The notes below the pieces were generated by a model that was given only the letters and a program-made list of their open reading frames with translations, ran no database searches and was not told where the DNA came from. A DNA stretch of 64,000 nt from Candidatus Limnocylindria bacterium (GTDB lineage: Bacteria; Chloroflexota; Limnocylindria; P2-11E): NCBI GenBank assembly GCA_036565345.1, contig DATCNH010000081.1:2118-66117 (forward strand), given 5' to 3'. The stretch's first letter is position 1, and each line of letters begins with the position of its first letter. The position numbers were made by a program, and so were the translations under genes. This document shows, piece by piece, positions 1,505-20,830 of this stretch.

Positions 1505-1598
1505 CACCCACCGCGCCGGTGGCACCGCCGGCAAGCCGTTCACGTGGCGCACCCTAGCGGGTTGACCGGTGCCTCCCGGCGTCGTTCGGCGCAGGGAC

Positions 1599-2210
1599 CT
1601 ACTCGTCGAGGGCAACGACGTACGCGCGCACCGCCCGGGCACCGCAGGCGCGTGCCGCGGCGGCCGCGTCGCGAAGCGTCGCCCCGGTGGTGGCGACATC
1701 GTCCACCAGCGCCACCCGGCCGCCACGAAGCGCGCCGGCCGTTCCGACGAACGCCGAGCACACATTCGCCGCGCGGCCCTGCCGGTCCAGCCGGACCTGC
1801 GCGGTCCCGCCACGGATCCGGTGGAGCGCGGCGACGAGCGGCACGGCGGTGTGCTGCGCGGCGACCGTCGCGAGGAGCATCGCCTGGTCGTAGCCGCGCT
1901 CCCGTCGCCGCGCGGGATGGAGACGCACCGGAACGAGCGCGTCGAGTTGTGCGCCACGGGCCAGATCGCCGGCGACCGCGGTCGCCACGAGCATCCCGAG
2001 CTCCTCGGTGAGCGCGGGCTGATCGCCGTACTTCGCGCTGTGGATCGCTTCGCGCAGTGGTCCCGCGTACGCCCCGCAGCCGGTGATCTCCAGTCCGCCG
2101 ACGGATCGCCGCAGCGGCTCCAGGCCATTGCGGCAGTCCAGGCAGAGCCAGGACCCGGGCAGGCCGCAGCCCGCGCAGCGCGGCGGAACGAGGAGATCGA
2201 GCGCGCTCAC
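1599..2210 (-). CDS. comF: ComF-family phosphoribosyltransferase (competence protein ComFC-like)
   Basis: N-terminal Cys4 cluster (PPRCAGCG...CLDC) plus a C-terminal PRTase motif (VALVDDVATTGATL). GTG start overlaps the upstream stop (GTGA at 2207-2210). Confidence 0.8.
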   Translation of the reverse strand: MSALDLLVPPRCAGCGLPGSWLCLDCRNGLEPLRRSVGGLEITGCGAYAGPLREAIHSAKYGDQPALTEELGMLVATAVAGDLARGAQLDALVPVRLHPARRRERGYDQAMLLATVAAQHTAVPLVAALHRIRGGTAQVRLDRQGRAANVCSAFVGTAGALRGGRVALVDDVATTGATLRDAAAAARACGARAVRAYVVALDE

Positions 2211-3473: not shown

Positions 3474-3487
3474 CTGGATCGGCCTTC

Positions 3488-5856: not shown

Positions 5857-5994
5857 CTCTACCCTTAACCCAACCTTCCAGCGCACGTTATCCGGTGCGG
5901 GGGCCGCCCGCAGGACCGGTCCCACGACCGTACGGTCTCGCCGGATGGACCGAAAGGGGTCCTTTCGGGCTATTTTTCGGCCGCGAAGGGCCTG

Positions 5995-7254
5995 TTACCG
6001 GGAGAACAGCCGCCGGCCGGCCCGTGCGACCGGTTTTTGTGGCACCGCACCGTCGGCGGCCGGCTCGCCGGTCCCCGAGAGCTTCCCGGCCAGGGTGAAG
6101 ATGTCTTTCGCGACCTGGCTGTCGCGATGGCTGATGACGAACGGCACCCCCCGGTTCACCGCCAGGACAAGCGCGCGGCCGTCGGAGACGATGGTGTGGG
6201 GCATCTTCCGCCCCAGGCTGCCCTCGACGTCCGAAACCTTGATCCCGCCAGAGCTGTCGTTCCGATTGGCGACGAGCTGGACCTTGGTCTCGTCATAGCC
6301 GAGCTTTTCGACGATCTCCATGAAGACCCGAACGTTCTTCAGGCTGGTGATCTCGAGGGTCATAAGGGTCAGGATGACGTCCGCGACATCAAGCATCGTG
6401 AGGACCTGCTCCTCGAAGGACGGCCAGGTGTCGACCACCACGTAGGCGTAGCTCTCGCGAAGCGTCTCGAGGACCTTCTTCATGTTGGCGCCGGTGATGA
6501 GCTCTTTGGCCTCCGGGGTCGGCGGCGCGAGCAGGACCTTGATCCCGGTCGAGTGCGATACGAGAACGCTCTCCATGACCTCGGCGTCCACCTGGTCGAA
6601 CGCTCCGACCAGGTCGGCGATCGTCTTCGCCTTCGGGCTCATGTTCAAGATGACCGCAATATCACCGAACGGGAGGCTTCCATCGACCAGGCAGACCGAC
6701 TGCCCGGTCAGCTGATGCAGCGCGACGGCGAGATTCGTCGAGATCGTAGTGCGGCCGACGCCGCCCTTCGGCGAGAAGAACGTAATGATCTTCCCTCGGA
6801 CCGAACTGCCGGCCGCCGGTGGCGGAGCGGCGACCTGCGGGATCGGCGCCGCCTGCTCGTACCGTGCCCGCTTCACCTTCTCGATCTCGTGGACATGGCG
6901 GATGGCGTTCACCAGCTCATCCGCGGAGAAAGGCTTCACCAAGAACTCGCGCGCGCCGGCGAGCATCGAACGGCGCAGATAGTCCTGCTCGTTCTGGACG
7001 CTCATCATGATGATCGGCGAGCCGGGAACGGTGTTCGCAATGATCTCGGTAGCGGTGATCCCGTCCATCCCGGGCATGTTGATGTCCATCAGGATGACGT
7101 CCGGGCGCAGGCGCTTCGCGAGCTCGACCGCCTGCTGGCCGCCGTCGGCCGACCCTGCGACGACCATGTCCGTCTCAAAGCCGATGAGCTTGGCGAGGTT
7201 CTCGCGCGTCTCGGCGATGTCATCGACGACGAGAATGCGGATCGGATCAGCCAT
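5995..7254 (-). CDS. cpaE: CpaE/TadZ-type ATPase with an N-terminal response-regulator receiver domain
   Basis: N-terminal REC (ILVVDDIAETRENL...DVILMDINMPGMDG) with the acidic pocket intact, followed by a MinD/ParA deviant Walker A (SPKGGVGRTTIS). Confidence 0.85.
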   Translation of the reverse strand: MADPIRILVVDDIAETRENLAKLIGFETDMVVAGSADGGQQAVELAKRLRPDVILMDINMPGMDGITATEIIANTVPGSPIIMMSVQNEQDYLRRSMLAGAREFLVKPFSADELVNAIRHVHEIEKVKRARYEQAAPIPQVAAPPPAAGSSVRGKIITFFSPKGGVGRTTISTNLAVALHQLTGQSVCLVDGSLPFGDIAVILNMSPKAKTIADLVGAFDQVDAEVMESVLVSHSTGIKVLLAPPTPEAKELITGANMKKVLETLRESYAYVVVDTWPSFEEQVLTMLDVADVILTLMTLEITSLKNVRVFMEIVEKLGYDETKVQLVANRNDSSGGIKVSDVEGSLGRKMPHTIVSDGRALVLAVNRGVPFVISHRDSQVAKDIFTLAGKLSGTGEPAADGAVPQKPVARAGRRLFSR

Positions 7255-7263
7255 CGGTCACGC

Positions 7264-7779
7264 TCATGATATGGGGCGGAGCTGGAAGACCAGCGCGATC
7301 AGCGCGCCGAGCCCAAGAGCCACGCCGTAGGGGATCCAAGTCTTCATCAGGGCGTGCATCGTATTGGGGGGATCCCCTGGCGCCGGCCGGCTCAGGCGGC
7401 GTAGGACGATGAAGACGATGGCGATGATGCCGCCGGTGAGCGCACCCCAGACCGCGGCCTGGAGCAGGAACGCGGTCCCCTTGAGGGCGCCCACGGCCAT
7501 GAGGAGCTTTCCGTCCCCGGCCTTCAGGCCACCTGCGGCGTAGAAGGGGTACGAGACCAAGAACCCGACGACGAGCCCGGCCAGATGGTCGAGCAGGCCC
7601 CCAGCGAGCGGACCGCCAGGAAAGCCCGCCGGCCCGGCGAAGCTCTCAGCGAGACCGAACAGGATCCCGACGAGCATCGCCGGATAGGTCGCGACGTTCG
7701 GGATGCGCCGGAACCGCCAATCGGTCCAGATGACCGTCAGGACGAAGCCGACCAGGACCGCATCCTCGGCGATCTCCAG
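7264..7779 (-). CDS. cpaA: prepilin peptidase CpaA/TadV (A24 family), likely non-canonical start
   Basis: The track ORF (7264-7677, MLVGILFGL...) is the conserved core. The same frame continues upstream as ...LEIAEDAVLVGFVLTVIWTDWRFRRIPNVATYPA and contains the family hallmark D-x-R-x-RRIPN plus the first TM helix. There is no ATG/GTG/TTG up to the in-frame stop at 7882-7884. The CTG at 7777-7779 would give MEIAEDAVLVGF... Confidence 0.7.
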   Translation of the reverse strand: MEIAEDAVLVGFVLTVIWTDWRFRRIPNVATYPAMLVGILFGLAESFAGPAGFPGGPLAGGLLDHLAGLVVGFLVSYPFYAAGGLKAGDGKLLMAVGALKGTAFLLQAAVWGALTGGIIAIVFIVLRRLSRPAPGDPPNTMHALMKTWIPYGVALGLGALIALVFQLRPIS

Positions 7780-7868
7780 CGCGTCGATGAGCCACCCCTC
7801 TCCGCTGATGAAAAAGGCGGCGCCCGCCGACTGCGGGCGCCGCCTGGACCGTATCCGGATCGGACCGA

Positions 7869-8027
7869 CTAGGTGAGGTTGTTACCGATGTTGCTGAAGA
7901 TGTTCTGGATCTGCCCGCGAAGGAAGATCATCGCAACGATGACCGCGATCGCGATGACGGCGATGATGAGTGCATATTCGACGAGTCCCTGACCGTCGTC
8001 GTCGCGGAAGAAGCGCTGAATGTCCAT
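7869..8027 (-). CDS. flp: Flp-family type IVb pilin precursor
   Basis: MDIQRFFRDDDGQGLVEYALIIAVIAIAVIVAMIF... carries the Flp motif G/QGLVEYAL followed by a hydrophobic helix. ATG at 8025-8027 is preceded by a perfect AAGGAG. Confidence 0.85.
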   Translation of the reverse strand: MDIQRFFRDDDGQGLVEYALIIAVIAIAVIVAMIFLRGQIQNIFSNIGNNLT

Positions 8028-8100
8028 TGGCTGTCTCCTTTCTTCGGTCCTGCTGGCCCTCACTGTCAGATACGGACGAGCAACCGAACAGTAGGAAAAC
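8028..8100 (-). promoter_or_regulatory. putative flp promoter/5'UTR region
   Basis: 73-nt less GC-rich spacer between the upstream hairpin and the strong flp RBS. No clean -35/-10 pair could be assigned by eye. Confidence 0.25.
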
Positions 8101-8157: not shown

Positions 8158-9231
8158 CTAGGGGCCGCTGACCGAGAGGAGCGGCGGGCCGAGGAAGACG
8201 ATCAGGAGCGCCGGGAGGACGCAGAAGGTGAGCGGGAAGAGGAGCAGGACCGGCAGGCGGCGGGCGCGCGTCTCGGCCCGCCGACGCTCGCTCTCCCGGA
8301 GCGCGTCGGCCTGCGTGACCAGCAGCTCGGCGAGGGGGGAGCCGAAGCGTGAGGCGGCATCCACGAGCGCGGCGATCCGAGCCTCCTGCGGGCCGGCCGC
8401 GGCGAAGGCGGCGAACGCGAGACGGGGTGGCCGGCCCAGCCGGAGATCGGCGAGCAGCCGACGAGCCTCCGGGAGCCGGGCGACACGCGAGGCCCGCTCC
8501 ACGAGGGCCGCAAGCGCCTGCTCGAAGGTCAGTCCCGCCTCCAGACCCACGACGACCGCATCGACGAGCGACGCGAGCTCCGGCGAGCCCGCCGGCGGAC
8601 GGGTCAACCGCCGCAGCCACAGCGCACCGATGACTTCGAGGGCGATCGCCGCCACGAGCAGCCCACGGCCCCGCCCGGTGAAGATCGCGATGTAGTCCGG
8701 CGAGAGGATCGCGAAGGCGATCGCCCCGAGCGGCGCCAGACCGAGGAGCACCGCCGCCGACATGCGGCTCTGCGCGGTGAGCGCACTCCGCTCGTCGTCA
8801 AGGGCGAGGCGGCCACGCAGCAGTCGTGCGACCCGGCCGAGACTACGTCCGATCGGCCCGCCGGTGCGGGCGAAGGCGACCAGCACCACCGCGAACGGCG
8901 CCACATCCTCCTCGGGAATGACTCCGGAGTAGCTCGCGAGGGCGCGTCCCACCGGGTCTCCGATCGATAGGGTCGCCGCCGCACGCGCCGTCGCGCGTCC
9001 GAGCTCGCGAGGAAGCGCCGCGGCCACCTCGGAAAAGGCCCGCTCCAACGACAGTCCGGCGCCGAGGGCCGCACCGACCGCATCGATGAGGCCGGGGAAC
9101 GCGGCCCGCGCCTGCCGATCGGCCCCGCGCAGACCGGCGAGCCGGCGCCGGATGGCGTGCACCCGCGCGGCCGGCAGCAGGCCGCTCACGACGAGGATGC
9201 CGCCGCCCGCCAGGAGGGCCGCGGTCAGCAC
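8158..9231 (-). CDS. Tad platform protein with two T2SSF domains (fused TadB/TadC-like)
   Basis: N-terminal TM, T2SSF-like block 1 (...GAGLSLERAFSEVAAALPRELG...), central TM pair, T2SSF block 2 (...VVGLEAGLTFEQALAALV...RARRLPVLLLFPLTFCVLPALLIVFLGPP). GTG start at 9231. Confidence 0.7.
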   Translation of the reverse strand: MLTAALLAGGGILVVSGLLPAARVHAIRRRLAGLRGADRQARAAFPGLIDAVGAALGAGLSLERAFSEVAAALPRELGRATARAAATLSIGDPVGRALASYSGVIPEEDVAPFAVVLVAFARTGGPIGRSLGRVARLLRGRLALDDERSALTAQSRMSAAVLLGLAPLGAIAFAILSPDYIAIFTGRGRGLLVAAIALEVIGALWLRRLTRPPAGSPELASLVDAVVVGLEAGLTFEQALAALVERASRVARLPEARRLLADLRLGRPPRLAFAAFAAAGPQEARIAALVDAASRFGSPLAELLVTQADALRESERRRAETRARRLPVLLLFPLTFCVLPALLIVFLGPPLLSVSGP

Positions 9232-10337
9232 GCGATCGGCACGGGGCGCAGGACGTGATCGGCCGCCTCGGGATCCACCTCCACGATCTCGACGATCCGG
9301 CGACGGCCATCGGGGCCGCGCTCCTGGTGGACCACCAGCTCGATGCCCCGATGGATCTGCTCGCGGATCACCGCGATCGGCAGGTCCACGCCTCCCATGA
9401 GGGCCATCGTCTCCAGCCGGAGGAGTGCGTGATACGCGCTGTTCGCGTGCGCGGTGGTCAGCGAGCCGCGATGCCCGGTGTTCATCGCCTGGAGCATGTC
9501 GAGCGCTTCGCCTCCCCGGACCTCGCCCACGATGATCCGGTCAGGCCGCATCCGAAGCGCGTTCCGGAGGAGCGTGCGCACGTCGATCGCACCGGTGCCC
9601 TCCACGCTCGCGGGGCGCGTCTCGAGCGCGACCACGTTCGCCTGCGGCAAACGCAGCTCGGCGGCATCCTCGATGGTGACCACCCGCTCTTCGGGAGCGA
9701 TGCCGTGGGCCAGGGCATTCAGGGTGGTCGTCTTGCCGCTCGAGGTCCCGCCCGAAATGAGGATGCTCCGGCGCGCGGCGACCGCGGCCACGAGGAACGC
9801 GATCGTCTGGGCGGGGGCCGTCCCGGCACGGACGAGATCGTCCGGTCCGAGCGCACGCGGACCGAACCGCCGGATGGTGAGGATGGGTCCGGCGATCGCC
9901 ACAGGCGCGATGACCGCGTGGACCCGCGAGCCATCCGGAAGTCGGGCATCGACCAGCGGGTTCGCCAGGTCGATCCGTCGGCCGAGCGGCGCGACGAGCC
10001 GCTCGATGAGGACCAGGATCTCCTCAGGATCGCGAAACCGGATCGGGACCGGCTCGATCCGTCCGGCGCGCTCCACCCAGACCCCGCGAGTGCCATTCAC
10101 CATGATCTCGGTCACCCGCTCGTCGCGAAGGAGCGGGGCGAGCTCACCCAGTCCGAAAAAACGATCGTGGAGCCACCGCTCGACTGCGGCGAGCTCGACC
10201 GACGACAGGGCGACACGCTCGGCCGCCGCGCTCTCCCGGAGGATGATCCCAAGCTGATCGGCCCGTGGCCGCCCCTGCTCGCTCTCCCGCAACCGCGCCG
10301 CGACCGCGCGCTCGAGGCGGTCGCGCATGGCGGTCAT
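9225..10337 (-). CDS. second CpaF/TadA-family secretion ATPase
   Basis: Walker A GGTSSGKTTTLNAL, Asp box and His box (EVRGGEALDMLQAMNTGHRGSLTTAHANS). ATG at 10335-10337 overlaps the upstream stop (ATGA). Confidence 0.9.
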   Translation of the reverse strand: MTAMRDRLERAVAARLRESEQGRPRADQLGIILRESAAAERVALSSVELAAVERWLHDRFFGLGELAPLLRDERVTEIMVNGTRGVWVERAGRIEPVPIRFRDPEEILVLIERLVAPLGRRIDLANPLVDARLPDGSRVHAVIAPVAIAGPILTIRRFGPRALGPDDLVRAGTAPAQTIAFLVAAVAARRSILISGGTSSGKTTTLNALAHGIAPEERVVTIEDAAELRLPQANVVALETRPASVEGTGAIDVRTLLRNALRMRPDRIIVGEVRGGEALDMLQAMNTGHRGSLTTAHANSAYHALLRLETMALMGGVDLPIAVIREQIHRGIELVVHQERGPDGRRRIVEIVEVDPEAADHVLRPVPIAC

Positions 10338-11293
10338 GACGCGTCGATCGTCAGGAGCTCGGCGAGCTCGTCGTATGCCGCCCCGAGCGCGCCGCCGACC
10401 GGTCCGCGCGCGAGCAGCCCGTCAGCGACGGCCCGCTCATCCCGGGGAAGCACCCGGAACGCGCTCTCGATCGGGCCCTGCGCACCGATCCACCACACCG
10501 TTTCGGGCAGCCCCGCAGCGTCCCGGACCGCGCGCGACGCGGGATCGTCGTAGCCGAGAGCGAGCACGCGGTCGGCGACCAGGGCCGCGGCGCGGGCCAC
10601 CGGATCCGGCGCCGGCGGGGCATCGACGATGGCGATGTCCACCAGGTCGCGGGCGGCCGCCAGCACCGCGGCGGCAAGCTCGAGCGACGGCATCAACGGC
10701 GGACCGCCGATGATCGACAACCGCTTGCCGGCCTCGGTCGCCAGCACGGCCAGATGCTCGGCCCGGAGCTCGTCGGTGAGCGGCGCGACCTCCAGCCATG
10801 AGCGTGAAGCCGCCCCCAGCCACCAGCCGAGCGCGCCGGAGCCGGTCAGGTCGATGGCCAGCACGCTCCGCGACGCCGCGAGACGCCGAGCGAGGTTGGC
10901 CACCAGCAGCGTGCGGCCAACGCCCCCGCGACCGGAGGTCACGACGATCACACGGGTCGCGCCGCGGGCCGAACGCGGCGTGACGGCGGCGATGAGCGGT
11001 CCGAGCACCGCCGGATCGGTCGAGATCGCCGTGGCGACCGCGGCCCCTGACGCCGCCAGCAGGTCGCGCTGCGCCTCGGTCACCACGGCGACGCGCGGCA
11101 ACGTGGCCGGAAGCGACGCCGCGGCCGCCGCCGCGCCGCGGTCCCGAAGATCGACAAGGACGAGGTGTGGAGCGCCATCGCGATCGAGGTCGAGAACGCG
11201 TGCGGCTTCGTCGAGCGCCGATCCGCAGACCGCCGCCGCGATCCGCGGGGTCCGGACCGGCCGCCTGACCGCCCGATCGATCGGGGGCATCAT
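10334..11293 (-). CDS. second CpaE/TadZ-like ParA/MinD-family ATPase with a degenerate N-terminal domain
   Basis: Deviant Walker A VTSGRGGVGRTLLVANLA. Start assigned to ATG 11291-11293, which overlaps the cpaB-like stop (ATGATG); the track ORF starts at a GTG at 11374. Confidence 0.65.
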   Translation of the reverse strand: MMPPIDRAVRRPVRTPRIAAAVCGSALDEAARVLDLDRDGAPHLVLVDLRDRGAAAAAASLPATLPRVAVVTEAQRDLLAASGAAVATAISTDPAVLGPLIAAVTPRSARGATRVIVVTSGRGGVGRTLLVANLARRLAASRSVLAIDLTGSGALGWWLGAASRSWLEVAPLTDELRAEHLAVLATEAGKRLSIIGGPPLMPSLELAAAVLAAARDLVDIAIVDAPPAPDPVARAAALVADRVLALGYDDPASRAVRDAAGLPETVWWIGAQGPIESAFRVLPRDERAVADGLLARGPVGGALGAAYDELAELLTIDAS

Positions 11294-11712
11294 CGGGTCG
11301 AACGGAGCAATGGAACGAGCAAGTGACCGGAGGCCCGCGCCAGCGCGATCGCGGTGGCGTCCTCGGCCACGCACCCGACGACGAGCCCGCGTTCGTCCAT
11401 CGAGACCACGAGCAGGTCGAAGGCGATCGCCGTGGCCGACGCACGGTCACCGGTACGCAGCGCCAGCAGGTCGAGGCGGTCGCCCGGCCGAGCGCCGACG
11501 AGCGATGTCGCCAGCCACGCGGCGGGCAGCATGAGCGCCCAGGTGTCCGGGGTAAGCGTCTCGGCGACCGAGGCGCTGCGGGTCACTCCCGCATCCGTCG
11601 AGACGGGACCGAGCAGCACCGCGGCGGCAAGGACCAGCGCCCCCGCGACCGCCAACGCCGCACGTGGAGGGACGCGGCGGCGGCGGGCCAGGACGCTCAG
11701 CGATGGCAGCAT
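11290..11712 (-). CDS. CpaB/RcpC-like small membrane-anchored pilus assembly protein (tentative)
   Basis: N-terminal TM (AALAVAGALVLAAAVLLG), then ...GARPGDRLDLLALRTGD...LVVGCVAEDATAIALARASGHLLVPLL, resembling the C-terminal part of CpaB proteins. Position in the operon fits. Confidence 0.4.
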   Translation of the reverse strand: MLPSLSVLARRRRVPPRAALAVAGALVLAAAVLLGPVSTDAGVTRSASVAETLTPDTWALMLPAAWLATSLVGARPGDRLDLLALRTGDRASATAIAFDLLVVSMDERGLVVGCVAEDATAIALARASGHLLVPLLRSTR

Positions 11713-12149
11713 GCGGCTCCGATCGCGACGCGCTGGCGGTGACGATCCACCGTCAGAATCACCTCGATGGCCGGACCAGCATCGCGGATCGACAGGTCGG
11801 TCGGTGCTCCGGCACGGTTCTCGGCGGCGATCTCGCGCGCCGCGCCCAGCGCGGCCTCAGCGACGGCCGGATCCGCGACCAAGGCAGTGATCTCCGTGCG
11901 CCGAGCGAGCGAGCGGGGTCGCCCGCTCGCGTCCCGAAGGCCGAGGATGAGGGCCACCTGGGCATCGGCGAGCGCCGCTCCCGCCGCCTCCGCCGCGGCC
12001 TCAGCGGCACGACGGGCGTGCGCGTCCGAGAGGATGCGCTCCTGCGCATCCCGCAGGCCGACGATCGCCGCGGCGGCGATCCCGATGCCGAGGACCGCGA
12101 TCAGGAGCGCCTGCCCACCGTCGTCGGCACGGGCGGTCAAGGGGTCCAC
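11697..12149 (-). CDS. TadE/TadF-like pseudopilin (tentative)
   Basis: N-terminal DDGGQALLIAVLGIGIAAAAIVGL hydrophobic segment and no Flp G/XXXXEY motif. Lies between the cpaB-like gene and tadE. Confidence 0.4.
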   Translation of the reverse strand: MDPLTARADDGGQALLIAVLGIGIAAAAIVGLRDAQERILSDAHARRAAEAAAEAAGAALADAQVALILGLRDASGRPRSLARRTEITALVADPAVAEAALGAAREIAAENRAGAPTDLSIRDAGPAIEVILTVDRHRQRVAIGAACCHR

Positions 12150-12526
12150 TCGATCCGTCGGGCGGCATCGCCGCGGACCACGAGCTGCGGCAGGCCGATG
12201 AGCCCGAGGGGCGCCGCGATCGTGTAACGGAGGCTGACCCGCAGCAGGGCGCCCCGCGGCGCAGGACCGCGCTCCGCGACACCCGGGACCACCGCGATCG
12301 CTACCTTTGCCGGGTCGAGCGGCGCGACGGCGGCGGCGACCGTCGAGCGGATGAGCTCGTCGTCATTCGTGAGCGCGCCGATGCGTGCTCCTTCGGCCGC
12401 ACCCTGCTCCAGGGCGAGGCGCGCGATCCCAAGCTCGGCGATCGCGGTGATCGCGAACGCGAGAATGAGCAGCACCGGGAGAACGAGGGCGAGCTCCACG
12501 AGCGCCTGACCCCGTTGGTCCTTCAT
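12137..12526 (-). CDS. tadE: TadE-like pseudopilin
   Basis: Classic TadE N-terminus MKDQRGQALVELALVLPVLLILAFAITA. ATG 12524-12526 overlaps the hydrolase stop (ATGA). Confidence 0.75.
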   Translation of the reverse strand: MKDQRGQALVELALVLPVLLILAFAITAIAELGIARLALEQGAAEGARIGALTNDDELIRSTVAAAVAPLDPAKVAIAVVPGVAERGPAPRGALLRVSLRYTIAAPLGLIGLPQLVVRGDAARRIEWTP

Positions 12527-13656
12527 GGCCGCGCCAGTCCTGCGTTGCGGGCATTCGCCCACGTACGCACGAAGGGCAGCCGGCGGCGTCGAAGCGCCCA
12601 GCATGCGGCGATCAGGCAGACCGCGGCGAGCCCGAGGGCCCAGGGCATGACGGCGTCGGCGATCCGGCTCGTACGCGCCGCCTGCGCGATCTCGACACCA
12701 CGCATATCCGATGGGGCGGCGCGGCGCGCGACGGTGGTCGTGACCAGGTCGAGGGCGCGAGGATCACTGGTGATCGCACCGTGGCCGTCGAGCCACTCGC
12801 CGGCGCCGCGCGGAAGCAGAACCCGCGCGTCGACCCCGGGAACGGCCGCATCGCGCTCGATGACCGCGACGTCGCTCGCCATGCGCAGGTCCAAGCGCGC
12901 GATACCGGCGGCCGTCGCACCGAGACGAAGCCGCGCGAGGTCCTCGGTCGCCGGACCGGCGATGTCGCGGCCCTGCACGATCGAGGCGATCGCGCGAGCT
13001 TCCGGCCGAGCATCGCCCGCCATTTGTGCGACGACCTGCGCATAGCGGGCGGCGGTGGAGCCGTCGTGCGGAGCGGCGAGCGCGATATAGGTCCGCACGC
13101 CATCGCTCGCCGAGAGGCCGCGGGCGAGGGCGGTGTCGACCACCGCGCCACCCATGGAGTGCGCGATGAGGTGGACGGTGCCGTACCGCGTCGCCAGCTC
13201 GCGCACTTCGGCGGTCAGCGCGTCGGCGTTGTCGGACAGGCGGCCGACGGTGTCGTACGGGTGCTCCGGATCGGCGCCAAAGCGGCGGACCTCGTAACGC
13301 GGGTCGGCTCGCAGGCGGCCGATGAGCGCGTCCCAGGTCCGGTCGGAGCTCGAGGATCCGATGCCCGCGACCAGCAGGACCACCTCGCGACCGCTCCGGC
13401 CTGGAGCGACCTTCGGCGCGAGCTCCGGCAGATCGAGCGGACGAAGGGTCGTTCGGGACGGACGGACCGCCGCGCTGTCGACGTGCGGCGGTCCGTCATC
13501 TCCCGCGGCCGGGAACGCGCCTGCAGCCGGAAGGAGGGCCACGGCCACGCAGATCGCGCGAAGAAGTGTCCCGACCACGCCCCGCACTTCATTCCGGATC
13601 GCCCGCCCGCCATAGAGGACCGTGGGCCGGTACCCGGGTACCCAGAGCAGCCGCAA
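12523..13656 (-). CDS. secreted alpha/beta-hydrolase (lipase/esterase-like) with a C-terminal membrane anchor
   Basis: GxSxG nucleophile elbow (IAHSMGG), downstream acid/His regions and an N-terminal hydrophobic signal (VGTLLRAICVAVALLPAAGA). C-terminal TM AVMPWALGLAAVCLIAACWALRRRR. First gene of the second tad module. Confidence 0.7.
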   Translation of the reverse strand: MRLLWVPGYRPTVLYGGRAIRNEVRGVVGTLLRAICVAVALLPAAGAFPAAGDDGPPHVDSAAVRPSRTTLRPLDLPELAPKVAPGRSGREVVLLVAGIGSSSSDRTWDALIGRLRADPRYEVRRFGADPEHPYDTVGRLSDNADALTAEVRELATRYGTVHLIAHSMGGAVVDTALARGLSASDGVRTYIALAAPHDGSTAARYAQVVAQMAGDARPEARAIASIVQGRDIAGPATEDLARLRLGATAAGIARLDLRMASDVAVIERDAAVPGVDARVLLPRGAGEWLDGHGAITSDPRALDLVTTTVARRAAPSDMRGVEIAQAARTSRIADAVMPWALGLAAVCLIAACWALRRRRLPFVRTWANARNAGLARP

Positions 13657-13727
13657 CCCGGGCGTGGCGCGCTCCCGGTCATCGGGGATCCCGCCCTGCT
13701 TCGAGTGGTAGCGTCATCCGCGTGGGC

Positions 13728-14063
13728 ATGAAGATCTCATTGCTCGATGTACTCGCTCACGATCGAACACCGCTCCGAGCGCCACCCTCATGGATCAACG
13801 CGGAGATCGCCACCGTGAACGATCAGGTGGTGCTCCATGGCGGCGCCGGCAAGCTCGACGGCGCATGGCACCGCCAGGACAGCGACGAGTTCCTGCTGGT
13901 CCTTCGAGGCTCGCTGATCGTCGAATTCGGGCTCGGACCAGTGACCGCCGGGCCGGGGGAGGGAATCCTCATCTCCTCGGGGGAACGGCACCGCGCCACG
14001 GTCCCGGAGGACTGCCTGCTCTTATCGGTCGAAGGGATCGGGATGACGCGCGTCGAAGACTGA
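13728..14063 (+). CDS. cupin-domain protein
   Basis: MKISLLDVL... with cupin motifs (VLHGGAG...EFLLVLRGSLIVEF...PGEGILISSGERHRA). The track ORF is over-extended at the 5' end. Confidence 0.65.
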   Translation: MKISLLDVLAHDRTPLRAPPSWINAEIATVNDQVVLHGGAGKLDGAWHRQDSDEFLLVLRGSLIVEFGLGPVTAGPGEGILISSGERHRATVPEDCLLLSVEGIGMTRVED

Positions 14064-14107
14064 TGGCAATGCTAGGGTGCGCCCACGAGGTGGTTGGAGG
14101 GAATCCG

Positions 14108-15676
14108 ATGTCGCGGCGACTGCAGCTCACGAGCCTGCTCTTGGTCTTCACGATGGTCCTGGCGGCATGCGCGCCAAGCGCCGGGCCTGCACCATCGGGC
14201 GCGTCGGGCCAGCCCAAGAAGGGCGGCACCCTGATCCTCGCACGCGCCGGAGAGGTGACCAACCTTGACCCGCACAAGGTTCCGGCCTTCACATCCGCCC
14301 GGGTCTTCGAGCTTGTGTACAGCTATCTCATGCGGCTCGACGAGAACCTCGCCGTCCAGCCGGACCTCGCCGAGTCGATGCCCACGACCTCGGCCGACGG
14401 CAAAAAGGTCACGGTGAAGCTCCGCAAGGGGGTCAAGTTCCACAACGGCGATCCGCTCACCAGCGCGGACGTGAAGTACACGTTTGACCGCATCATGGAC
14501 CCGAAGACCGCGGCAGTCGCGCGTTCGTTCTTCGGCGACGTGAGCGCGGTCACCGCACCGGACGAGTCGACGGTCGTGTTCGATCTCAAGACGCCCAACG
14601 CGGCGCTCATCGCCTACATGGCGCACCCGAACACCGGCATCGTGTCGAAGAAGATCGGGGAGGCCAATGCCGACCTGTCGAAGAAGGAGACGGCGATCGG
14701 CAGCGGTCCGTTCAAGCTCGTCGAATGGGTCCCGGACAACTACATGCGCTTCGAGGCGAACAAGGACTACTACGTCGCGGGGCAGCCCTACCTCGACGGC
14801 GTGCGCATCAACGTCGTCCCGGACGAGACGGCACTGGCGGCCGCGCTTCGCACCAAGGCCGCCGATATGGCGATCGTCACCGACGCGAAGGTCGCGCGCA
14901 CGCTCAAGGGCGAGTCGGGCGTCACCCTGTCCGCGAAGCCGAGCCTCAGCTACAACCTGCTGTTCGTGAACACCACGCGCAAGCCGTTCGACAACCTCAA
15001 GGTGCGTCAGGCGATCGCCTACGCGATCGACCGCAAGGCGATCATCGATGCCGTCGCGTTCGGCGAAGGTGAGGCCACCGGGCCGATCGCACCGGCCCTG
15101 GCGAACTACGCGCTCCCCACGTCGCAGTACCCCCTGTACACCCGCGACGTGGCCAAGGCGAAGCAGCTGCTGCAGGAAGCCAACGTCGGCCCGATCACGT
15201 TCACGATGCTCACGCAGACGACCGAGCCGTCGTACGCGAAGGACATCGCGCAGCTCGTGCAGGCGCAGCTCGCGGAGATCGGCGTGACGATGAAGATCGA
15301 GACGCTCGAGTTCACCCAGTGGGTCGCGCGCTGGCTTAAGGCGGACTTCGACATGGCCCCCGGATTGAACGGCGGGGGCCCCGACCCGGACTTCTACCTG
15401 TTCCGGTACTTCACCGACGACGGGAATCTGAATTTTGTGACCGGCTACAAGAACCCGGCGTCGAGCGACTCGATCAAGGCGGCACGGGCGACGACCGACG
15501 TCGCCAAGCGCAAGGAGCTCTACACGACCGCTCAGAAGGAGCTCGTGAACGGTGTCCCGTTCATCTGGCTCTACGTGGGACGCGACTACAACGCGACACT
15601 GCCCACGACGAAGGGATTCATCCACCTGCCCACTGGATCGATCGTCTACCTGCGCCAGACCTGGCTGGACAAGTAA
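14108..15676 (+). CDS. ABC transporter substrate-binding lipoprotein, family 5 (DppA/OppA-like)
   Basis: ATG 14108 preceded by GGAGGG. Lipobox LVFTMVLAAC. SBP_bac_5-type sequence throughout (PDNYMRFEANKDYY..., FTQWVAR). Confidence 0.85.
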   Translation: MSRRLQLTSLLLVFTMVLAACAPSAGPAPSGASGQPKKGGTLILARAGEVTNLDPHKVPAFTSARVFELVYSYLMRLDENLAVQPDLAESMPTTSADGKKVTVKLRKGVKFHNGDPLTSADVKYTFDRIMDPKTAAVARSFFGDVSAVTAPDESTVVFDLKTPNAALIAYMAHPNTGIVSKKIGEANADLSKKETAIGSGPFKLVEWVPDNYMRFEANKDYYVAGQPYLDGVRINVVPDETALAAALRTKAADMAIVTDAKVARTLKGESGVTLSAKPSLSYNLLFVNTTRKPFDNLKVRQAIAYAIDRKAIIDAVAFGEGEATGPIAPALANYALPTSQYPLYTRDVAKAKQLLQEANVGPITFTMLTQTTEPSYAKDIAQLVQAQLAEIGVTMKIETLEFTQWVARWLKADFDMAPGLNGGGPDPDFYLFRYFTDDGNLNFVTGYKNPASSDSIKAARATTDVAKRKELYTTAQKELVNGVPFIWLYVGRDYNATLPTTKGFIHLPTGSIVYLRQTWLDK

Positions 15677-15681
15677 GGGAG

Positions 15682-15710
15682 GGCGGCGGGAAGGCCATCT
15701 TCCCGCCGCC
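15682..15710 (+). terminator. perfect 12-bp stem-loop (GGCGGCGGGAAG-GCCAT-CTTCCCGCCGCC) between the SBP and permease genes
   Basis: Seen directly, 6 nt after the TAA of the SBP gene. Typical intra-operon attenuator or mRNA-stabiliser position in ABC importer operons. Confidence 0.5.
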
Positions 15711-15719
15711 GTTCGCTCG

Positions 15720-16673
15720 GTGATCCGCTACCTCGGCATCCGGATCCTCAGCGCGATCCCGACCATGCTCGGCGTCTCCTTGCTCACGTTCCTCTTCATC
15801 CGGCTCATCCCCGGCGACGCCATCGCGGCGCGGCTCGGGACCTCCACCGCGCTAACGCCGGACCAGCTCGCGAGCCTCCGGGCCTACTTCGGTCTGGATC
15901 GGCCGCTGCCGCTGCAGTACTGGGATTGGATGAGCTCGCTCCTCCGGGGCGACGCCGGCTACTCGATCCGCACCGGGAGGCCGGTGCTCGTCGAGATCGC
16001 CGAACGCCTGCCGGCCACGCTCGAGCTGGCGGCGGCGGCGGCGGCCATCGCCGTGGCGGTCGGCATCCCGCTCGGGCTCGTTTCCGCGATGCGGCCGCGC
16101 ACCCGCCTCGATGTCATCGCGCGCGTCGGTGGGCTCATCGGCCTCTCGCTGCCGAGCTTCTGGCTCGGGACCCTCATCATCGTGCTGTTCTCGCTGTACC
16201 TCCGCTGGCTCCCGAATACCGGAGGCTACGTCGACTTCTTCCGCGACCCGGCCGCGAACCTGCGGCTCCTCATCTTCCCGGCGATCACCCTCGGGCTCGG
16301 CCTCGCGGCGGCAACGATGCGCATGACGCGCTCGGCGATGATCGACGTGCTCGGCGCGGACTACGTCCGCACCGCGACCGCGAAGGGCCTCCGGCGCTCC
16401 ACCGTCATCCGTCGCCACGCGCTGAAGAACGGGCTCATCATCGTCGTCACGCTCCTCGGGGTTCAGGTCGGACAGCTCCTCGGCGGCGCGGTCGTGGTCG
16501 AAGAGATCTTCTCGATCCCCGGGATCGGGCGGATGCTCCTCACCGCGATCGTGCAGCGGGATTACGCCCTGGTCCAGGGCGCCGTGCTCGTGATCGCGAT
16601 CCTGTTCGTGTTCGTGAACATCATCGTCGACCTTCTCTACGGCTACCTCGATCCGCGGATTCGCCTTGCGTAG
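15720..16673 (+). CDS. ABC transporter permease (DppB/OppB-like)
   Basis: GTG 15720 gives MIRYLGIRILSAIPTMLGVSLLTFLF... with the BPD_transp_1 signature. The track ORF is over-extended into the SBP gene. Confidence 0.8.
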   Translation: MIRYLGIRILSAIPTMLGVSLLTFLFIRLIPGDAIAARLGTSTALTPDQLASLRAYFGLDRPLPLQYWDWMSSLLRGDAGYSIRTGRPVLVEIAERLPATLELAAAAAAIAVAVGIPLGLVSAMRPRTRLDVIARVGGLIGLSLPSFWLGTLIIVLFSLYLRWLPNTGGYVDFFRDPAANLRLLIFPAITLGLGLAAATMRMTRSAMIDVLGADYVRTATAKGLRRSTVIRRHALKNGLIIVVTLLGVQVGQLLGGAVVVEEIFSIPGIGRMLLTAIVQRDYALVQGAVLVIAILFVFVNIIVDLLYGYLDPRIRLA

Positions 16674-17520
16674 GCCGGCCGGCCGATCGGTCGGGCTCAT
16701 CGGGATCGCCGCCGCGATCACGCGCGAGCCGGTCGCGCTCGTGGGCCTGGCGCTGGTCCTCCTGTATGCCGGCGTCGCGCTCACCGTCGGGATCCTTCCG
16801 CTGCGCGACCCGCTCCTCCTGTCCACGCACCGGCTCGAGCCGCCGTCGGCCGGATTCCCGCTCGGCACCGACGCGCTCGGGCGCGACCTGCTGAGCCGGG
16901 TCCTCTTCGGCGCCCGCCTCTCGATGCAGGTCGCCGTGTTCTCCGTCACGGCGGCGACCGTCGTCGGCGGGATCTGCGGCCTCGTGGCCGGCTATCTCGG
17001 CGGCGCGGTGGATCTCGTGATCGGCCGGGCGATGGATGTGCTCTTCTCGTTCCCGGCGATCCTGCTCGCGCTCGGCATCGTGGCCGCGCTCGGTCCAGAC
17101 CCGAGCAACGTGATCGTCGCCATCGCGGTGGTGTACACCCCGATCTTCGCGCGCGTCGTCCGCGGCCCGGTGCTCGCGCTGAAGGCGCGCGAGTTCGTGG
17201 AGGCCGCGCGCGCGGTGGGTGCGACGCGGACGCGCATTGTGCTACGCCACATCGTGCCGAACCTGCTGCCGACGCTCGTCGTCCAGGTCAGCCTGGCGCT
17301 CTCGTGGGCGGTGCTGACGGAGGGCGCCCTGTCGTTCCTCGGCCTCTCCGCGCAGCCGCCCGCGCCGTCCTGGGGCGTGATGCTCAGCGAGGGCCGGCAG
17401 TACCTGGAGTTCGCCACGCATCTCGCCATCTTTCCCGGCCTTGCGATCATGGTCGCCGTGCTTGGCTTCAATCTCCTCGGCGACGGGCTGCGCGACGCGC
17501 TTGATCCGCAGCACCGATGA
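16666..17520 (+). CDS. ABC transporter permease (DppC/OppC-like)
   Basis: N-terminal OppC_N-like region plus the BPD_transp_1 EAA-type motif. TTG start at 16666 overlaps the upstream stop; the exact start is uncertain. Confidence 0.8.
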   Translation: MRRPAGRSVGLIGIAAAITREPVALVGLALVLLYAGVALTVGILPLRDPLLLSTHRLEPPSAGFPLGTDALGRDLLSRVLFGARLSMQVAVFSVTAATVVGGICGLVAGYLGGAVDLVIGRAMDVLFSFPAILLALGIVAALGPDPSNVIVAIAVVYTPIFARVVRGPVLALKAREFVEAARAVGATRTRIVLRHIVPNLLPTLVVQVSLALSWAVLTEGALSFLGLSAQPPAPSWGVMLSEGRQYLEFATHLAIFPGLAIMVAVLGFNLLGDGLRDALDPQHR

Positions 17521-17984
17521 GGATCTCCCGCGCCGGCCCGGAGCACCTCGGGGCGATCCGCGAGCTCCTCGTCGCCTCCCCCCTCCTCCGGCGCTACGGG
17601 ACGACGAAGCGGGGCGCACGCGCGAGCCTGGAGGAGGCGCTCGGCGCAGGGGACACCCTCGTCGTCGCGCTGGAAGGGATCGAGGTGCTGGGTGTCGCCT
17701 GGGTCATTGCGACCCGAGCGCTGGATCGGTCGGCGTACCTTCGGCTGCTGCTCGTGTCCGAGGGCAGCCGCTCGCAGGGCATCGGCGGACGGCTCGTGGC
17801 CGACGTCGAGCGCAGAGCGCGTGCCGCGGGCTGCCGCCACCTCCTCCTCCTTGTCACAACGACCAACCGGCGCGCTCGGGCCTTCTATGTCCGGCATGGC
17901 TACCGACACTTCGCCGACCTCCCGGCGTTCGTTCGTCCCGGGATATCGGAGTCGCTCTACCAGAAGCGCCTGTCCGGGCGCTGA
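17517..17984 (+). CDS. GNAT family N-acetyltransferase
   Basis: Acetyl-CoA binding motif (SRSQGIGGRLVADVERRARAAG). ATG overlaps the dppC-like stop (ATGA). Confidence 0.7.
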   Translation: MRISRAGPEHLGAIRELLVASPLLRRYGTTKRGARASLEEALGAGDTLVVALEGIEVLGVAWVIATRALDRSAYLRLLLVSEGSRSQGIGGRLVADVERRARAAGCRHLLLLVTTTNRRARAFYVRHGYRHFADLPAFVRPGISESLYQKRLSGR

Positions 17985-18040: not shown

Positions 18041-18775
18041 TCAGTGCCGGCTGCGGGCGACCTCCGCCGCGCTGTCGCGTGCGGCGAGCTCCACGGTGTC
18101 GTCGAGCGGCGCGAGGGCGACCTCGCCGTACCGCCGCGCGAGCGCCCAGCCGGTGAGCCGGTCGGCGAGCCAGGGGTTCTTCGGCAGCGCCGAGCCGTGG
18201 CAATAGCAGCCGATGAGCCGCCCCTGCACCGCGCCCTCGGTCTTGTCCTCGCCGTTGTTCCCGTGTCCGACGATGACCTGCGCGAGCGGCAACACGGCGG
18301 GCCCCAGGTAGGTCCGGCCGCTGTGATTCTCGAAGCCGATGAGCGTGTCGGCGCCTGCCCGTGCGAGCAGGTTCCCGACGAACCGCTCCTTCCCCGCCCG
18401 GGTCGTCACGTCGAGCACGCCGAGGCCGGCGATCGCCGGACCATCCTCGGGCACGTATTCGCGGCCGAGGAGCTGGTATCCGCCGCAGACCGAGAACACC
18501 GCGGCGCCGCCGGCGATCGACCGGCGGAGCGCCTCGCCGTTCGGCCCGGCGAGATCGGCGCCGACGAGGTCCTGTCCCTGATCCTGACCGCCGCCGAAGA
18601 ACCAGAGATCGGCCCAGTCGGGGTCGAACGTGTCGCCGAGAGTGTGGGAGCGCACGAGCGGCTCGATCCCCCGCCAGCGGGCGCGCTGCGCGAGGGCGAG
18701 GACGTTCCCCCGGTCGCCGTAGATCGACATGAGGTCGGGATACAGGTGGCCGATGCGCAGCTCCATGAGCCTCAA
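18041..18775 (-). CDS. gatD: lipid II isoglutaminyl synthase glutaminase subunit GatD (CobB/CobQ-type GATase)
   Basis: MRLMELRIGHLYPDLMSIYGDRGN... with the catalytic Cys context FSVCGGYQLLG and a C-terminal His. Directly downstream of murT. Confidence 0.8.
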   Translation of the reverse strand: MRLMELRIGHLYPDLMSIYGDRGNVLALAQRARWRGIEPLVRSHTLGDTFDPDWADLWFFGGGQDQGQDLVGADLAGPNGEALRRSIAGGAAVFSVCGGYQLLGREYVPEDGPAIAGLGVLDVTTRAGKERFVGNLLARAGADTLIGFENHSGRTYLGPAVLPLAQVIVGHGNNGEDKTEGAVQGRLIGCYCHGSALPKNPWLADRLTGWALARRYGEVALAPLDDTVELAARDSAAEVARSRH

Positions 18776-20202
18776 TCCTCCCAGAACTGCTTCACGTGGC
18801 CGAGCCGCGCGAGCGCGTCACGGAGCGCGAGCATGGCGGTGTAGGTCGTGAGCACGACGATCTCCTCGCCGATCGGCGCCTCGGCGATCGCGCGACGGAT
18901 GGCCACGGCCCAGCCGTCCACGACCACGATGAGCTCGGACGGAACGCCGGCGTACTTCAGCCGCAGCGCCATGTCGCGCGCCCGCAGGCCGGTGACGACG
19001 GCGTGCGTGATCCGCGGCGCCAGCGCTTCAAAGTCGGCGTCCCAGATCCAGGAAACGTCGCGGGAGTCGGCATCGCGGTCATTCAGGGCGGCAAGGATCC
19101 GCGGCCGCCGCCCGGTCTCGAGCAGCGCGCCGATCGCGGCGTTGAAGCCGGCGGGGTTCTTGACCAGCACGAGCCGCAGCGAGCGGCCGTCGGCGGCGAT
19201 CGCCTCGAGCCGTCCGAACGCCGGCCGGTAGCCGGCCAGGGCCCGCGTGGCCGTCGGCAGGGGGATATCCAGCGCACGCGCGGTCGCGAGCGCCGCGAGG
19301 GCGTTGTAGGCGTTGTACGCGCCGGGCACCGGGATGGCGATCGGATCCAGAACCGCCCCGACGGTCCCTGCGATCCGAAGCTCGGACCCCGCCGGACCGA
19401 GGAGCACCCGAGCGGCCGCGAGATCCCGCGGCGGGCGCGCCAGGCCGCAGCGCGTACACGACCAGTCGCCGACATGCGCGAGCACGATCCGGGTGTACGC
19501 CAGCGGCCCGTGACAGCGCGGGCAGCGGGTCGCGTCGCTGATCCCCTGGCTCGCCCGGTCCTCCGACGCCGTCGCGCCGAGCGCGCCGATCGCCGGGTCG
19601 TCGACCCCGAAGTAGAGAACCGGACCGCGGTGCGCGTTCCCGAGGTAGGCGACGATCGGATCGTCGGCGTTCAGCACGAGGGTGGTCGCGTCGGGCAACG
19701 GGCCGATCGCGGCGGCAAGTCGGCGGGCGAGCGCGTCGATCTCGAAATGGCGGTCCAGCTGGTCGCGGAACAGGTTGGTGACCACCAGGATCCGCGGATG
19801 CAGGCGCGCGAGGATCCGCGGAACCGAGGCCTCGTCCAGCTCGTAGATGCCCACGTTCGCGCGGGGCTCGCCGCTCCAGGTCGCATCGGCAAGGAGCGCG
19901 GCGGCGAGGCCTCGATCGAGGTTGGAGCCCGAGCGATTGTGGACCGGGGCCCAGCCGGCGGCCCGAACGATGTCCGACAGCATCCGGGTGGTCGTCGTCT
20001 TCCCGTTCGTCCCGGTGACCGCCACCGTGCCATGCGACAGGGCCCCGGAGACGCTGGCGACGGTGTTCGGATCGACCGCGAGGGCAACGAGACCCGGAAG
20101 CGAGGTGGCCCCCCGACCGAGGAGCTGGAGGGCGGATCGGGTCGCCTTGCCGGCGACGATCGCGGCGGTCGTCCTGAGCTGTCTCGTGCCGGTCCGGTCC
20201 AT
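18772..20202 (-). CDS. murT: lipid II isoglutaminyl synthase ligase subunit MurT (Mur ligase family + DUF1727)
   Basis: Mur ligase P-loop VAVTGTNGKTTTTRML and an internal Cys4 motif (CPRCHGPLAYTRIVLAHVGDWSCTRCG) typical of MurT. ATG at 20200-20202. Confidence 0.85.
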   Translation of the reverse strand: MDRTGTRQLRTTAAIVAGKATRSALQLLGRGATSLPGLVALAVDPNTVASVSGALSHGTVAVTGTNGKTTTTRMLSDIVRAAGWAPVHNRSGSNLDRGLAAALLADATWSGEPRANVGIYELDEASVPRILARLHPRILVVTNLFRDQLDRHFEIDALARRLAAAIGPLPDATTLVLNADDPIVAYLGNAHRGPVLYFGVDDPAIGALGATASEDRASQGISDATRCPRCHGPLAYTRIVLAHVGDWSCTRCGLARPPRDLAAARVLLGPAGSELRIAGTVGAVLDPIAIPVPGAYNAYNALAALATARALDIPLPTATRALAGYRPAFGRLEAIAADGRSLRLVLVKNPAGFNAAIGALLETGRRPRILAALNDRDADSRDVSWIWDADFEALAPRITHAVVTGLRARDMALRLKYAGVPSELIVVVDGWAVAIRRAIAEAPIGEEIVVLTTYTAMLALRDALARLGHVKQFWED

Positions 20203-20212
20203 GCCGCGCAGG

Positions 20213-20830
20213 CTAAACGGCGGCGGGCTGGACCTCTCGCACGAGGAGCTCAAGCTCGTCCACGGCGCGGCCGAGCCGCAGCGCCAGCGCCTTGGCGGTG
20301 TCGCCATTCGTGCTCGCCGCCTGCAAGCTGCCCTGCGAATCGAGGTGGGCCAGCAGGCCGACCGCCCGGCGCAGACGGGCGATCGTGAGCGAGGCAGGAA
20401 GCGTCCGGCGCAGCGCACCGACCCGATCCTCCAGTCGCTCGAGGCGACGGCGAAGCTCATCCTCCAGGTCCTCGACGGACATGCTGTCCAGGCGGCTCAC
20501 CTCGGATGCGAGGGCCGAGAGGTCGCGTTGGACGACCTGCGCGGCCTTCTCGAGCGAGTACCCCTTCTCCAGGGCCTGGCGGATCCGGATCACCTTCTCC
20601 ATGGCGAACACGTCGTAGTCATGGTCGTCGGAGGTCGAGGGCTTCACGAGGCCCTTCTTGGTCCAATAGATCAGCTGGCGGGGGGTCACGTTGCAGACCC
20701 GGGCAGCCTCGGCCGCGGACAGGCGCAGCCGCTGGATCACCTCGCCATCGTTCGCGATGAGCACCTGGGCCAGGGCGTCACGCCCCTCGAGCTCCGCCAC
20801 GATCCTCCCCTTTTCCCCACGAGCGCGCAT
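20213..20830 (-). CDS. MerR-family transcriptional regulator
   Basis: HTH (AAEAARVCNVTPRQLIYWTKKGLV) followed by a long coiled-coil region. Confidence 0.7.
   Translation of the reverse strand: MRARGEKGRIVAELEGRDALAQVLIANDGEVIQRLRLSAAEAARVCNVTPRQLIYWTKKGLVKPSTSDDHDYDVFAMEKVIRIRQALEKGYSLEKAAQVVQRDLSALASEVSRLDSMSVEDLEDELRRRLERLEDRVGALRRTLPASLTIARLRRAVGLLAHLDSQGSLQAASTNGDTAKALALRLGRAVDELELLVREVQPAAV

Follow-up and report, generated by a model that had tools for sequence, protein, structure and literature searches.

Lytic transglycosylases of the VirB1, FlgJ and EtgA type are dedicated wall-lytic enzymes of envelope-spanning machines, and the Tad pili of single-membrane bacteria are regarded as minimal machines. 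How type IV filaments get across the thick walls of single-membrane bacteria is acknowledged to be an open question, and no wall-lytic enzyme of that kind has been described for these filaments (PMC6916266). The minor pilins TadE, TadF and TadG have been proposed to form customisable tip complexes (PMC12075869). Here we describe a gene in a 64,000-nucleotide (nt) stretch of DNA from a Candidatus Limnocylindria bacterium (Chloroflexota; assembly GCA_036565345.1, contig DATCNH010000081.1, positions 2,118 to 66,117 of the forward strand; the whole stretch is called the window below). The gene encodes a predicted serine hydrolase of the alpha/beta-hydrolase fold and is the first of a tightly overlapping string of minus-strand tad genes, directly followed by tadE. 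A hydrolase that is membrane-tethered and, by its sequence, catalytically intact thus stands as the fixed, translationally coupled first Tad gene across a class of abundant uncultured soil and freshwater Chloroflexota. What is new is a clade-restricted variant of the Tad gene cluster, distinguished by a conserved accessory enzyme that is lipase-like and whose function we infer; no description of a hydrolase or lipase in tad loci, nor of Limnocylindria pili, was found in the literature.

With the enzymes of the VirB1/FlgJ/EtgA type the hydrolase would share a logic, that of an operon-encoded enzyme opening the envelope locally, and one ortholog (P0130) carries an SLT_3 domain. Those enzymes are lysozyme-like, however, whereas the window hydrolase has no such domain and its chemistry would be ester hydrolysis. 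Its association with a minor-pilin gene recalls the modular minor pilins of TadE/F/G tips, where customisation runs via genes beside tadE (PMC12075869), but those pilins have a prepilin N-terminus and the hydrolase has none; in P0132, where the hydrolase is fused to TadE, it forms the N-terminal part and cannot ride on the pilin once that is processed.

The hydrolase-tadE pair

The hydrolase gene and its junction with tadE are laid out as follows:

12523..13578, minus strand: hydrolase coding sequence from the probable GTG start, 351 amino acids (the maximal open reading frame [ORF] reaches TTG 13656)
12523..12526, minus strand: ATGA stop/start overlap of hydrolase and tadE (sequence reading)
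12137..12526, minus strand: tadE-like minor pilin, MKDQRG/QALVEL... (PF07811, E 1e-7; alignment A3)

Read from the sequence, the hydrolase ORF (12523..13656, minus strand) encodes 377 amino acids when counted from a TTG start, and residue numbers below follow this frame; its stop codon TGA (12525..12523) and the tadE ATG (12526..12524) together form the ATGA overlap. The 16 nearest full-length homologs have 351-355 amino acids and an N-terminus aligning at V27 of the 377-residue frame, so the start is probably GTG 13578, giving 351 amino acids, rather than TTG 13656, and the 26 residues from TTG 13656 are probably untranslated; GTG 13587 is a possible alternative start. The earlier reading of this DNA from its letters alone (the sequence-only reading) had ended the gene at 13656, which holds for the ORF and probably misplaces the start codon by 78 nt.

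To follow the pair across genomes, loci were sampled in two independent ways, from hydrolase homologs and by a metagenome scan with the TadE alignment (80 loci). The pair was found in about 45 loci, with hydrolase identities from 83% down to <30%. From the hydrolase side, TadE was directly next in 11 of 11 loci that had downstream sequence, the gene order then being the same, and it also follows the divergent members P0196 (E 2.5e-29) and P0207 (E 1.8e-22), both ~30% identical (E values with the family profile). From the TadE side, 37 loci had TadE at ≥55% identity, and the hydrolase lay directly upstream in all 33 of these having at least 226 nt of upstream sequence. At TadE identities of ≤49% it was upstream in 0 of 42 loci of the metagenome scan, so the conservation across lineages that marks a core Tad component is lacking; in ten such distant loci the upstream gene was a TadE/TadG pseudopilin, a prepilin peptidase, a TPR protein, a regulator, or unassigned. 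The hydrolase is thus not a core Tad component; neither is it a pilin or a lytic transglycosylase. An [AG]TGA overlap was present at 31 of the 34 hydrolase-tadE junctions scored (8 of 10 in the loci examined earlier), and no insertion between the two genes was seen among the loci examined. In one locus (L004) the hydrolase stays with the first tad module although flp and the second module are absent.

In a metagenome-assembled genome (MAG; GCA_016875665.1), protein P0132 (L044:745-2090) is an in-frame fusion of hydrolase, transmembrane (TM) segment, tail and TadE that keeps the prepilin cleavage motif G/QALVEF, at which processing would still part the hydrolase from TadE. Such a fusion would place the hydrolase tail in the cytoplasm, though an error of assembly could also have produced it. 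What seemed a second fusion (L055) has the look of a frameshift, its TM region being replaced by Arg-rich out-of-frame text, and was not counted. Two further irregular copies may be pseudogenes or assembly errors: a hydrolase split into two ORFs, apparently by a frameshift (L009:6176-7221), and a C-terminal hydrolase remnant joined to an unrelated N-terminal segment (L082:578-1270).

The 4-nt overlap suggests that the hydrolase is co-transcribed with the tad genes and has no transcription unit separate from tadE. Because the junction with TadE is never interrupted, unlike that on the GatD side (see below), and because of the P0132 fusion, the hydrolase is, as judged from gene layout, part of the Tad transcription and translation unit.

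A profile search of 1.84 billion representatives returned ~80 clusters at E ≤1e-30, with full-length family members trailing to ~1e-20, beyond which the architecture is different. The homologs all come from metagenomes or MAGs, and most of the named ones are labelled Chloroflexota or Ca. Limnocylindria. Around distant alpha/beta-hydrolases of other phyla (32 genome loci, L011-L042), TadA, TadE and TadBC were absent. Two loci labelled ‘Candidatus Saccharimonadales bacterium’ (L005, DATLEG010000243.1, and P0028) nevertheless have a Limnocylindria-type locus, and MurT and GatD in loci so labelled are 89% and 92% identical to those of the window; the taxonomy of these MAGs is probably wrong. The family therefore appears confined to Limnocylindria-type Chloroflexota and is defined by its pairing with TadE; this clade restriction, together with the fold, triad, topology and operon membership of the hydrolase, makes up a descriptive layer that we consider well supported as a whole.

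These data bear on whether the hydrolase is an unrelated passenger, a cell-bound nutritional lipase or esterase merely using the tad promoter. Its resemblance to lipases and its absence from Tad loci outside the Limnocylindria-type clade would agree with that, but in the about 45 loci, across the same span of identities, the family was never found outside the position before TadE, and the 4-nt overlap is conserved; we give the passenger explanation a slim chance.

Fold, active site and membrane anchor

The features of the hydrolase itself are, in order of translation:

13504..13578, minus strand: signal-peptide-like N-terminus, residues 27-51, followed by the GDDGP motif (hydropathy; AxA-like c-region)
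13156..13158, minus strand: catalytic nucleophile Ser167 in IAHSMGG (codon read; invariant in alignments A1 and A2; directly after model strand 158-166)
12871..12873, minus strand: probable catalytic acid Asp262 (codon read; after model strand 253-259; alignments A1 and A2)
12850-12852, minus strand: Asp269, also invariant (alignments A1 and A2)
12781..12783, minus strand: catalytic His292 in a G-H-G motif (codon read; after model strand 276-280; alignments A1 and A2)
12592..12654, minus strand: C-terminal TM helix, residues 335-355 (hydropathy; continuous model helix 321-358)
12526..12591, minus strand: basic tail RRRRLPFVRTW...ARP, cytoplasmic (topology from the positive-inside rule and the P0132 fusion to a cytoplasmic TadE leader)

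The AlphaFold model of the hydrolase (28 homologs) has a mean predicted local distance difference test score (pLDDT) of 79.8, with >90 in the core, low confidence at residues 41-81 and a canonical strand order; a helical cap spans residues ~197-250, and a long C-terminal helix (321-358) contains the TM segment. In the model the nucleophile motif H-S-M-G-G follows strand 158-166, matching the G-x-S-x-G elbow after strand 5, and the order nucleophile-acid-His is that of alpha/beta-hydrolases, in which strand 7 precedes the acid and strand 8 the His. S167, H292 and D269 are invariant and D262 is at least 90% conserved in aligned sequences down to 27% identity; the nucleophile motif is present in 158 of 160 full-length family members.

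Among Pfam families, PGAP1 (PF07819) scored 26.6 bits against a cut-off of 24.3, aligning just profile positions 82-134 of 233, and Abhydrolase_6, Palm_thioest, DUF676 and LCAT matched below threshold. PGAP1 was matched by 16 of 24 family members (E ≤0.01), and the most divergent members matched no Pfam family. The best Foldseek match in the PDB was the Streptomyces lipase MAS1 (5H6B/5H6G; target-normalised TM-score 0.61), followed by many generic alpha/beta-hydrolases. Searched as a single sequence against PDB sequences, the hydrolase gave nothing significant (E 0.63); the family profile found a Burkholderia lipase at E 2.3e-7 as well as Pseudomonas, Bacillus and Streptomyces lipases, in alignments covering the HSxGG and PHxGS motifs.

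Family I lipases (Burkholderia cepacia/glumae, P. aeruginosa LipA, B. subtilis LipA, Streptomyces MAS1) thus have in common with the hydrolase the fold, the Ser-Asp-His order, the HSxGG elbow and the PHxGS motif after the next strand (profile E 2.3e-7 to 1e-3), over ~100 residues alignable by sequence and with 15-22% identity in structural alignments. They are soluble and secreted, whereas the hydrolase is predicted to be TM-anchored at its C-terminus and is encoded within a Tad operon. Likeness to the PGAP1/DUF676/Palm_thioest/Lipase_2 group is weak, lying near the nucleophile elbow (~50 of 233 profile positions). By profile and model, then, the nearest characterised relatives appear to be the family I bacterial lipases and the PGAP1/DUF676 group, and the label ‘lipase-like’ is justified for fold and motifs, not for activity. 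In practice the hydrolase forms a family of its own, apart from PGAP1, DUF676, Palm_thioest and Lipase_2.

Kyte-Doolittle hydropathy gives two hydrophobic segments only, at residues 24-53 and 331-356, with RRRR after the second. Among the 160 full-length members the N-terminal segment is present in 157 and the C-terminal one in 151, a recurrence which speaks against a chance layout of the hydrolase. In character the N-terminus is Sec-like, with a positive n-region, an h-region of 15 residues and small residues ahead of GDDGP, and a class III prepilin signal (G/xxxxE) was not found in it, unlike in TadE and Flp of the window. The 22-residue tail after the TM helix is variable in alignments A1 and A2. 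Two other modes of attachment were considered and rejected: there is no lipobox and the lone signal Cys is not conserved, which does not fit a lipoprotein, and sortase or exosortase signals (LPXTG, PEP, PGF, GlyGly) were not found in the ARTSRIADAVMPWALGL region nor in alignments A1 and A2.

Given the C-terminal anchor and a short helical stalk, the catalytic domain would face outward from the cytoplasmic membrane and be held no more than a few nanometres away, and an active site so close to the membrane would disfavour action on external substrates or at the pilus tip. The sequence-only reading had fared well up to this point. Its GxSxG lipase-like alpha/beta-hydrolase is borne out by the complete triad, the AlphaFold model, Foldseek and the family profile, and the fold classification that it had called for led, by structure and by profile, to family I lipases such as MAS1 and to the PGAP1/DUF676 group; the N-terminal signal with C-terminal TM segment and positive tail is confirmed by hydropathy and recurs in the 160-member set; the ATGA coupling, and with it probable co-translation with tadE, agrees with the overlap at 12523-12526; and the gene is present in every orthologous tad locus that could be examined. 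None of the outcomes that it had named as counting against it (absence from orthologous loci, transcription of its own, an incomplete triad) applies. Its suggestion of a tip-localised or pilus-borne enzyme, in contrast, has to be given up. The N-terminus is of Sec type rather than prepilin type, and the hydrolase, which has a C-terminal TM helix and a basic cytoplasmic tail of its own, should stay in the cytoplasmic membrane; in P0132, where it is N-terminal to the prepilin cleavage site, a pilin-borne enzyme would be cut off.

Behind the signal, an [AGSV][DE][DE]G motif is conserved in 133 of the 160 members. It belongs to a linear motif, [AS]-[DE]-D-G-P...R-P-x-x-T-x-x-R (residues 52-80; 13417-13503, minus strand), which is predicted to be disordered (pLDDT 35-40) and is kept even in ~30%-identical members (alignments A1 and A2); some sub-clades have a C-x(6-9)-C-T-I-L-R-P version in its place.

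A conserved yet predicted-disordered stretch (ADDGP...RPxxTxxR) suggests a docking peptide, and as such would suit an enzyme or assembly factor with the pilins as its target, either removing an acyl modification or extracting TadE or Flp from the membrane. A role of this sort would explain stoichiometric coupling to TadE; it also agrees with the translational coupling and the occasional TadE fusion, and with a catalytic domain tethered by the membrane, where prepilins reside. Flp and TadE pilins are not known to be acylated, however, which counts against it. Tad systems elsewhere also manage without such a factor (PMC6916266), and we regard action on the pilins as quite improbable.

The predicted anchor weighs as well on the idea of a cargo or effector, in which a type II secretion-like or Kil-type contact-killing Tad module would export, expose or deliver the lipase. 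Type II secretion classically exports family I.1/I.2 lipases, and this, like the pseudopilin-like genes of the module and a weak Pfam likeness of the nearest sister family (see below) to the Tle3 lipase effectors of type VI secretion, counts for such a module. So does the finding that Tad-like systems can mediate contact-dependent killing, with effectors that are unknown (PMC8460266, PMC12075869). The conserved C-terminal TM helix and basic tail, however, predict retention in the membrane of the producer, no immunity-like gene is evident beside the hydrolase, and flp at the end of the same gene string suggests an ordinary pilus, which together leave delivery of the lipase very improbable.

A possible role at the cell envelope

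Three lines of evidence come from outside the hydrolase domain. First, the ortholog P0130 (L043:1305-2660) has a lysozyme-like SLT_3 domain (E 4e-12) between its signal motif and its hydrolase domain, and sits at the GatD-[gene]-TadE position with a 4-nt overlap; no further SLT_3 fusion was found among all loci and proteins collected, and the window hydrolase has no SLT match in Pfam. Second, the nearest sister family joins an M23 peptidoglycan endopeptidase to a lipase-like domain (E 1e-17 to 1e-13 with the family profile). These Acidimicrobiales proteins (‘peptidoglycan DD-metalloendopeptidase family protein’) are exported, in bacteria taken as single-membrane, but they carry an N-terminal M23 domain, lack a C-terminal TM anchor of the hydrolase type and are encoded outside tad loci. 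Third, in each locus that reaches far enough upstream, the hydrolase is preceded by MurT and GatD (peptidoglycan amidation). Together, the SLT_3 fusion, the M23 sister family and the MurT/GatD neighbourhood would point, indirectly, to the cell envelope. The cell-wall remodelling suggested by the sequence-only reading gains indirect support from the same three observations.

M23 plus lipase-like proteins are widespread in Acidimicrobiales (851 matches at E ≤1e-10). Their locus (L128:8001-9674, L129:8001-9764) is a housekeeping one, xerC-sigma-[gene]-PQQ-rpsB-tsf-pyrH-frr, where PQQ is a beta-propeller gene.

On the upstream side, the window holds the following:

18041..20460, minus strand: GatD and MurT (Pfam)
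13729-17984, plus strand: insertion with a cupin, a family-5 solute-binding protein, two ABC permeases and a GNAT acetyltransferase (this window only, compared with L005, L001 and L048)
13579..13728, no strand: intergenic region from the hydrolase start to the divergent cupin gene, presumed promoter of the hydrolase-tad operon (ORF layout and cupin Pfam match; promoter function inferred)

GatD directly adjoins the hydrolase in most loci; the two are separated by an opposite-strand gene of ~1-1.5 kb in five (L007-9, L065, L069) and by 4.4 kb in the window, and in L044 a DSBA gene is inserted upstream of the hydrolase. In close relatives of the window GatD ends 60-120 nt before the hydrolase, which makes the insertion look recent; in one of them (L005) the hydrolase is 75% and GatD 92% identical. 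The gap to the divergent cupin gene is ~150 nt long, and a sigma-70 consensus scan found 0 sites, which is uninformative for a Chloroflexota genome of about 70-73% G+C.

The constancy of GatD, which is upstream wherever sequence suffices and adjoining in most loci, raises the alternative that the hydrolase is a general wall or envelope housekeeping esterase, working with MurT/GatD and bundled with Tad by transcription only. The M23-fused sister family in its housekeeping locus (xerC-sigma-[M23/lipase]-rpsB-tsf) agrees with this. However, a non-coding gap lies between GatD and the hydrolase, as against the 4-nt overlap between hydrolase and TadE, and insertions have come between GatD and the hydrolase on three or more occasions (4.4 kb in the window) and between the hydrolase and TadE on none. 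An in-frame fusion with TadE exists, and MurT/GatD are widespread without the hydrolase gene. On balance we hold a housekeeping role to be unlikely.

We turn to a role in the Tad machine itself, which we rate as the most likely of the explanations considered and yet put forward tentatively, with considerable doubt attached. The hydrolase may be a lineage-specific accessory enzyme of the Limnocylindria Tad machine. Synthesised along with the filament-priming minor pilin, it would cleave an ester-linked component (acyl or acetyl) of the envelope close to the membrane, next to the platform. Removal of this component would let the Tad machine or the nascent pilus be built through the wall of a host in which no secretin gene turned up among the scanned genes of the tad cluster. 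A bolder reading, which we consider somewhat unlikely, makes the hydrolase an esterase beside the platform that clears an ester-linked wall or lipid component, and with this the first enzyme dedicated to opening the envelope for a type IV filament machine of single-membrane bacteria.

Several observations weigh against an envelope-opening role. Among characterised enzymes the nearest are lipases rather than enzymes with known activity on the wall, and the resemblance to an envelope esterase is weak: against viral structures Foldseek returned generic alpha/beta-hydrolases only, with the mycobacteriophage enzyme LysB at ranks 36 and 46. An SLT_3 fusion was met only once, and the M23 fusions belong to the sister family, not to the hydrolase family itself. 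Distant TadE loci do without the hydrolase, as do other monoderm Tad systems, which function without such an enzyme (PMC6916266). The highly conserved adjacency of GatD and hydrolase would allow a part in general wall metabolism, common descent could account for part of the synteny within a single class, and the envelope architecture of the uncultured hosts is assumed from knowledge of Chloroflexota.

If the hydrolase serves the machine, it would represent a new class of accessory component and a candidate for envelope passage, and its interest lies mainly in such a lead on how single-membrane bacteria manage this passage. Otherwise it still stands for an uncharacterised cell-bound lipase-like family with a well-defined genomic signature. 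That signature helps annotation, as most members are now labelled ‘hypothetical protein’.

The remaining tad genes of the window

Downstream of tadE, the string continues with the following features:

11697..12149, minus strand: 150-amino-acid ORF with a pseudopilin-like N-terminus (GGQALLIAVLG...), tentatively a putative second minor pilin (sequence reading; conserved position)
11290..11712, minus strand: 140-amino-acid membrane-anchored RcpC/CpaB-like protein (orthologs sub-threshold for RcpC, 27.1 bits vs a cut-off of 28.8; in all loci)
10334..11374, minus strand: TadZ/CpaE-like ParA-family ATPase without a receiver domain (domain searches)
9225..10337, minus strand: TadA/CpaF-type secretion ATPase (T2SSE E 1e-58; TIGR03819 317 bits)
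8158..9231, minus strand: platform protein with two T2SSF domains, a fused TadB/TadC (Pfam)
7869..8063, minus strand: flp pilin gene, G/QGLVEY motif (PF04964)
7815..7845, minus strand: very strong terminator-like hairpin directly 3' of flp, with a 13-bp stem, 12 GC pairs and a T-run (sequence scan)

The 150-amino-acid ORF had no Pfam or NCBIfam match. A gap of 94 nt separates the fused tadB/C from flp. The tad-cluster genes that were scanned yielded no secretin domain. On the same strand, a second, classical Tad module (2559-8063, minus strand) comprises flp, a prepilin peptidase, a response-regulator-CpaE, CpaF, TadB and TadC, the last two as separate genes, so that the tad locus of the window has two ATPases and two platform sets. 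Located 3' of this TadC, a large ORF (107-2128, minus strand) has no Pfam match, and its C-terminal ~400 residues look like a multi-spanning membrane region. In distant tad loci (L117:2799-3974, L097:2928-3974 and L103:1993-3255), modular minor pilins occur beside TadE: TadE joined to PASTA (a peptidoglycan-binding type), TadE joined to PKD and TadG joined to vWA.

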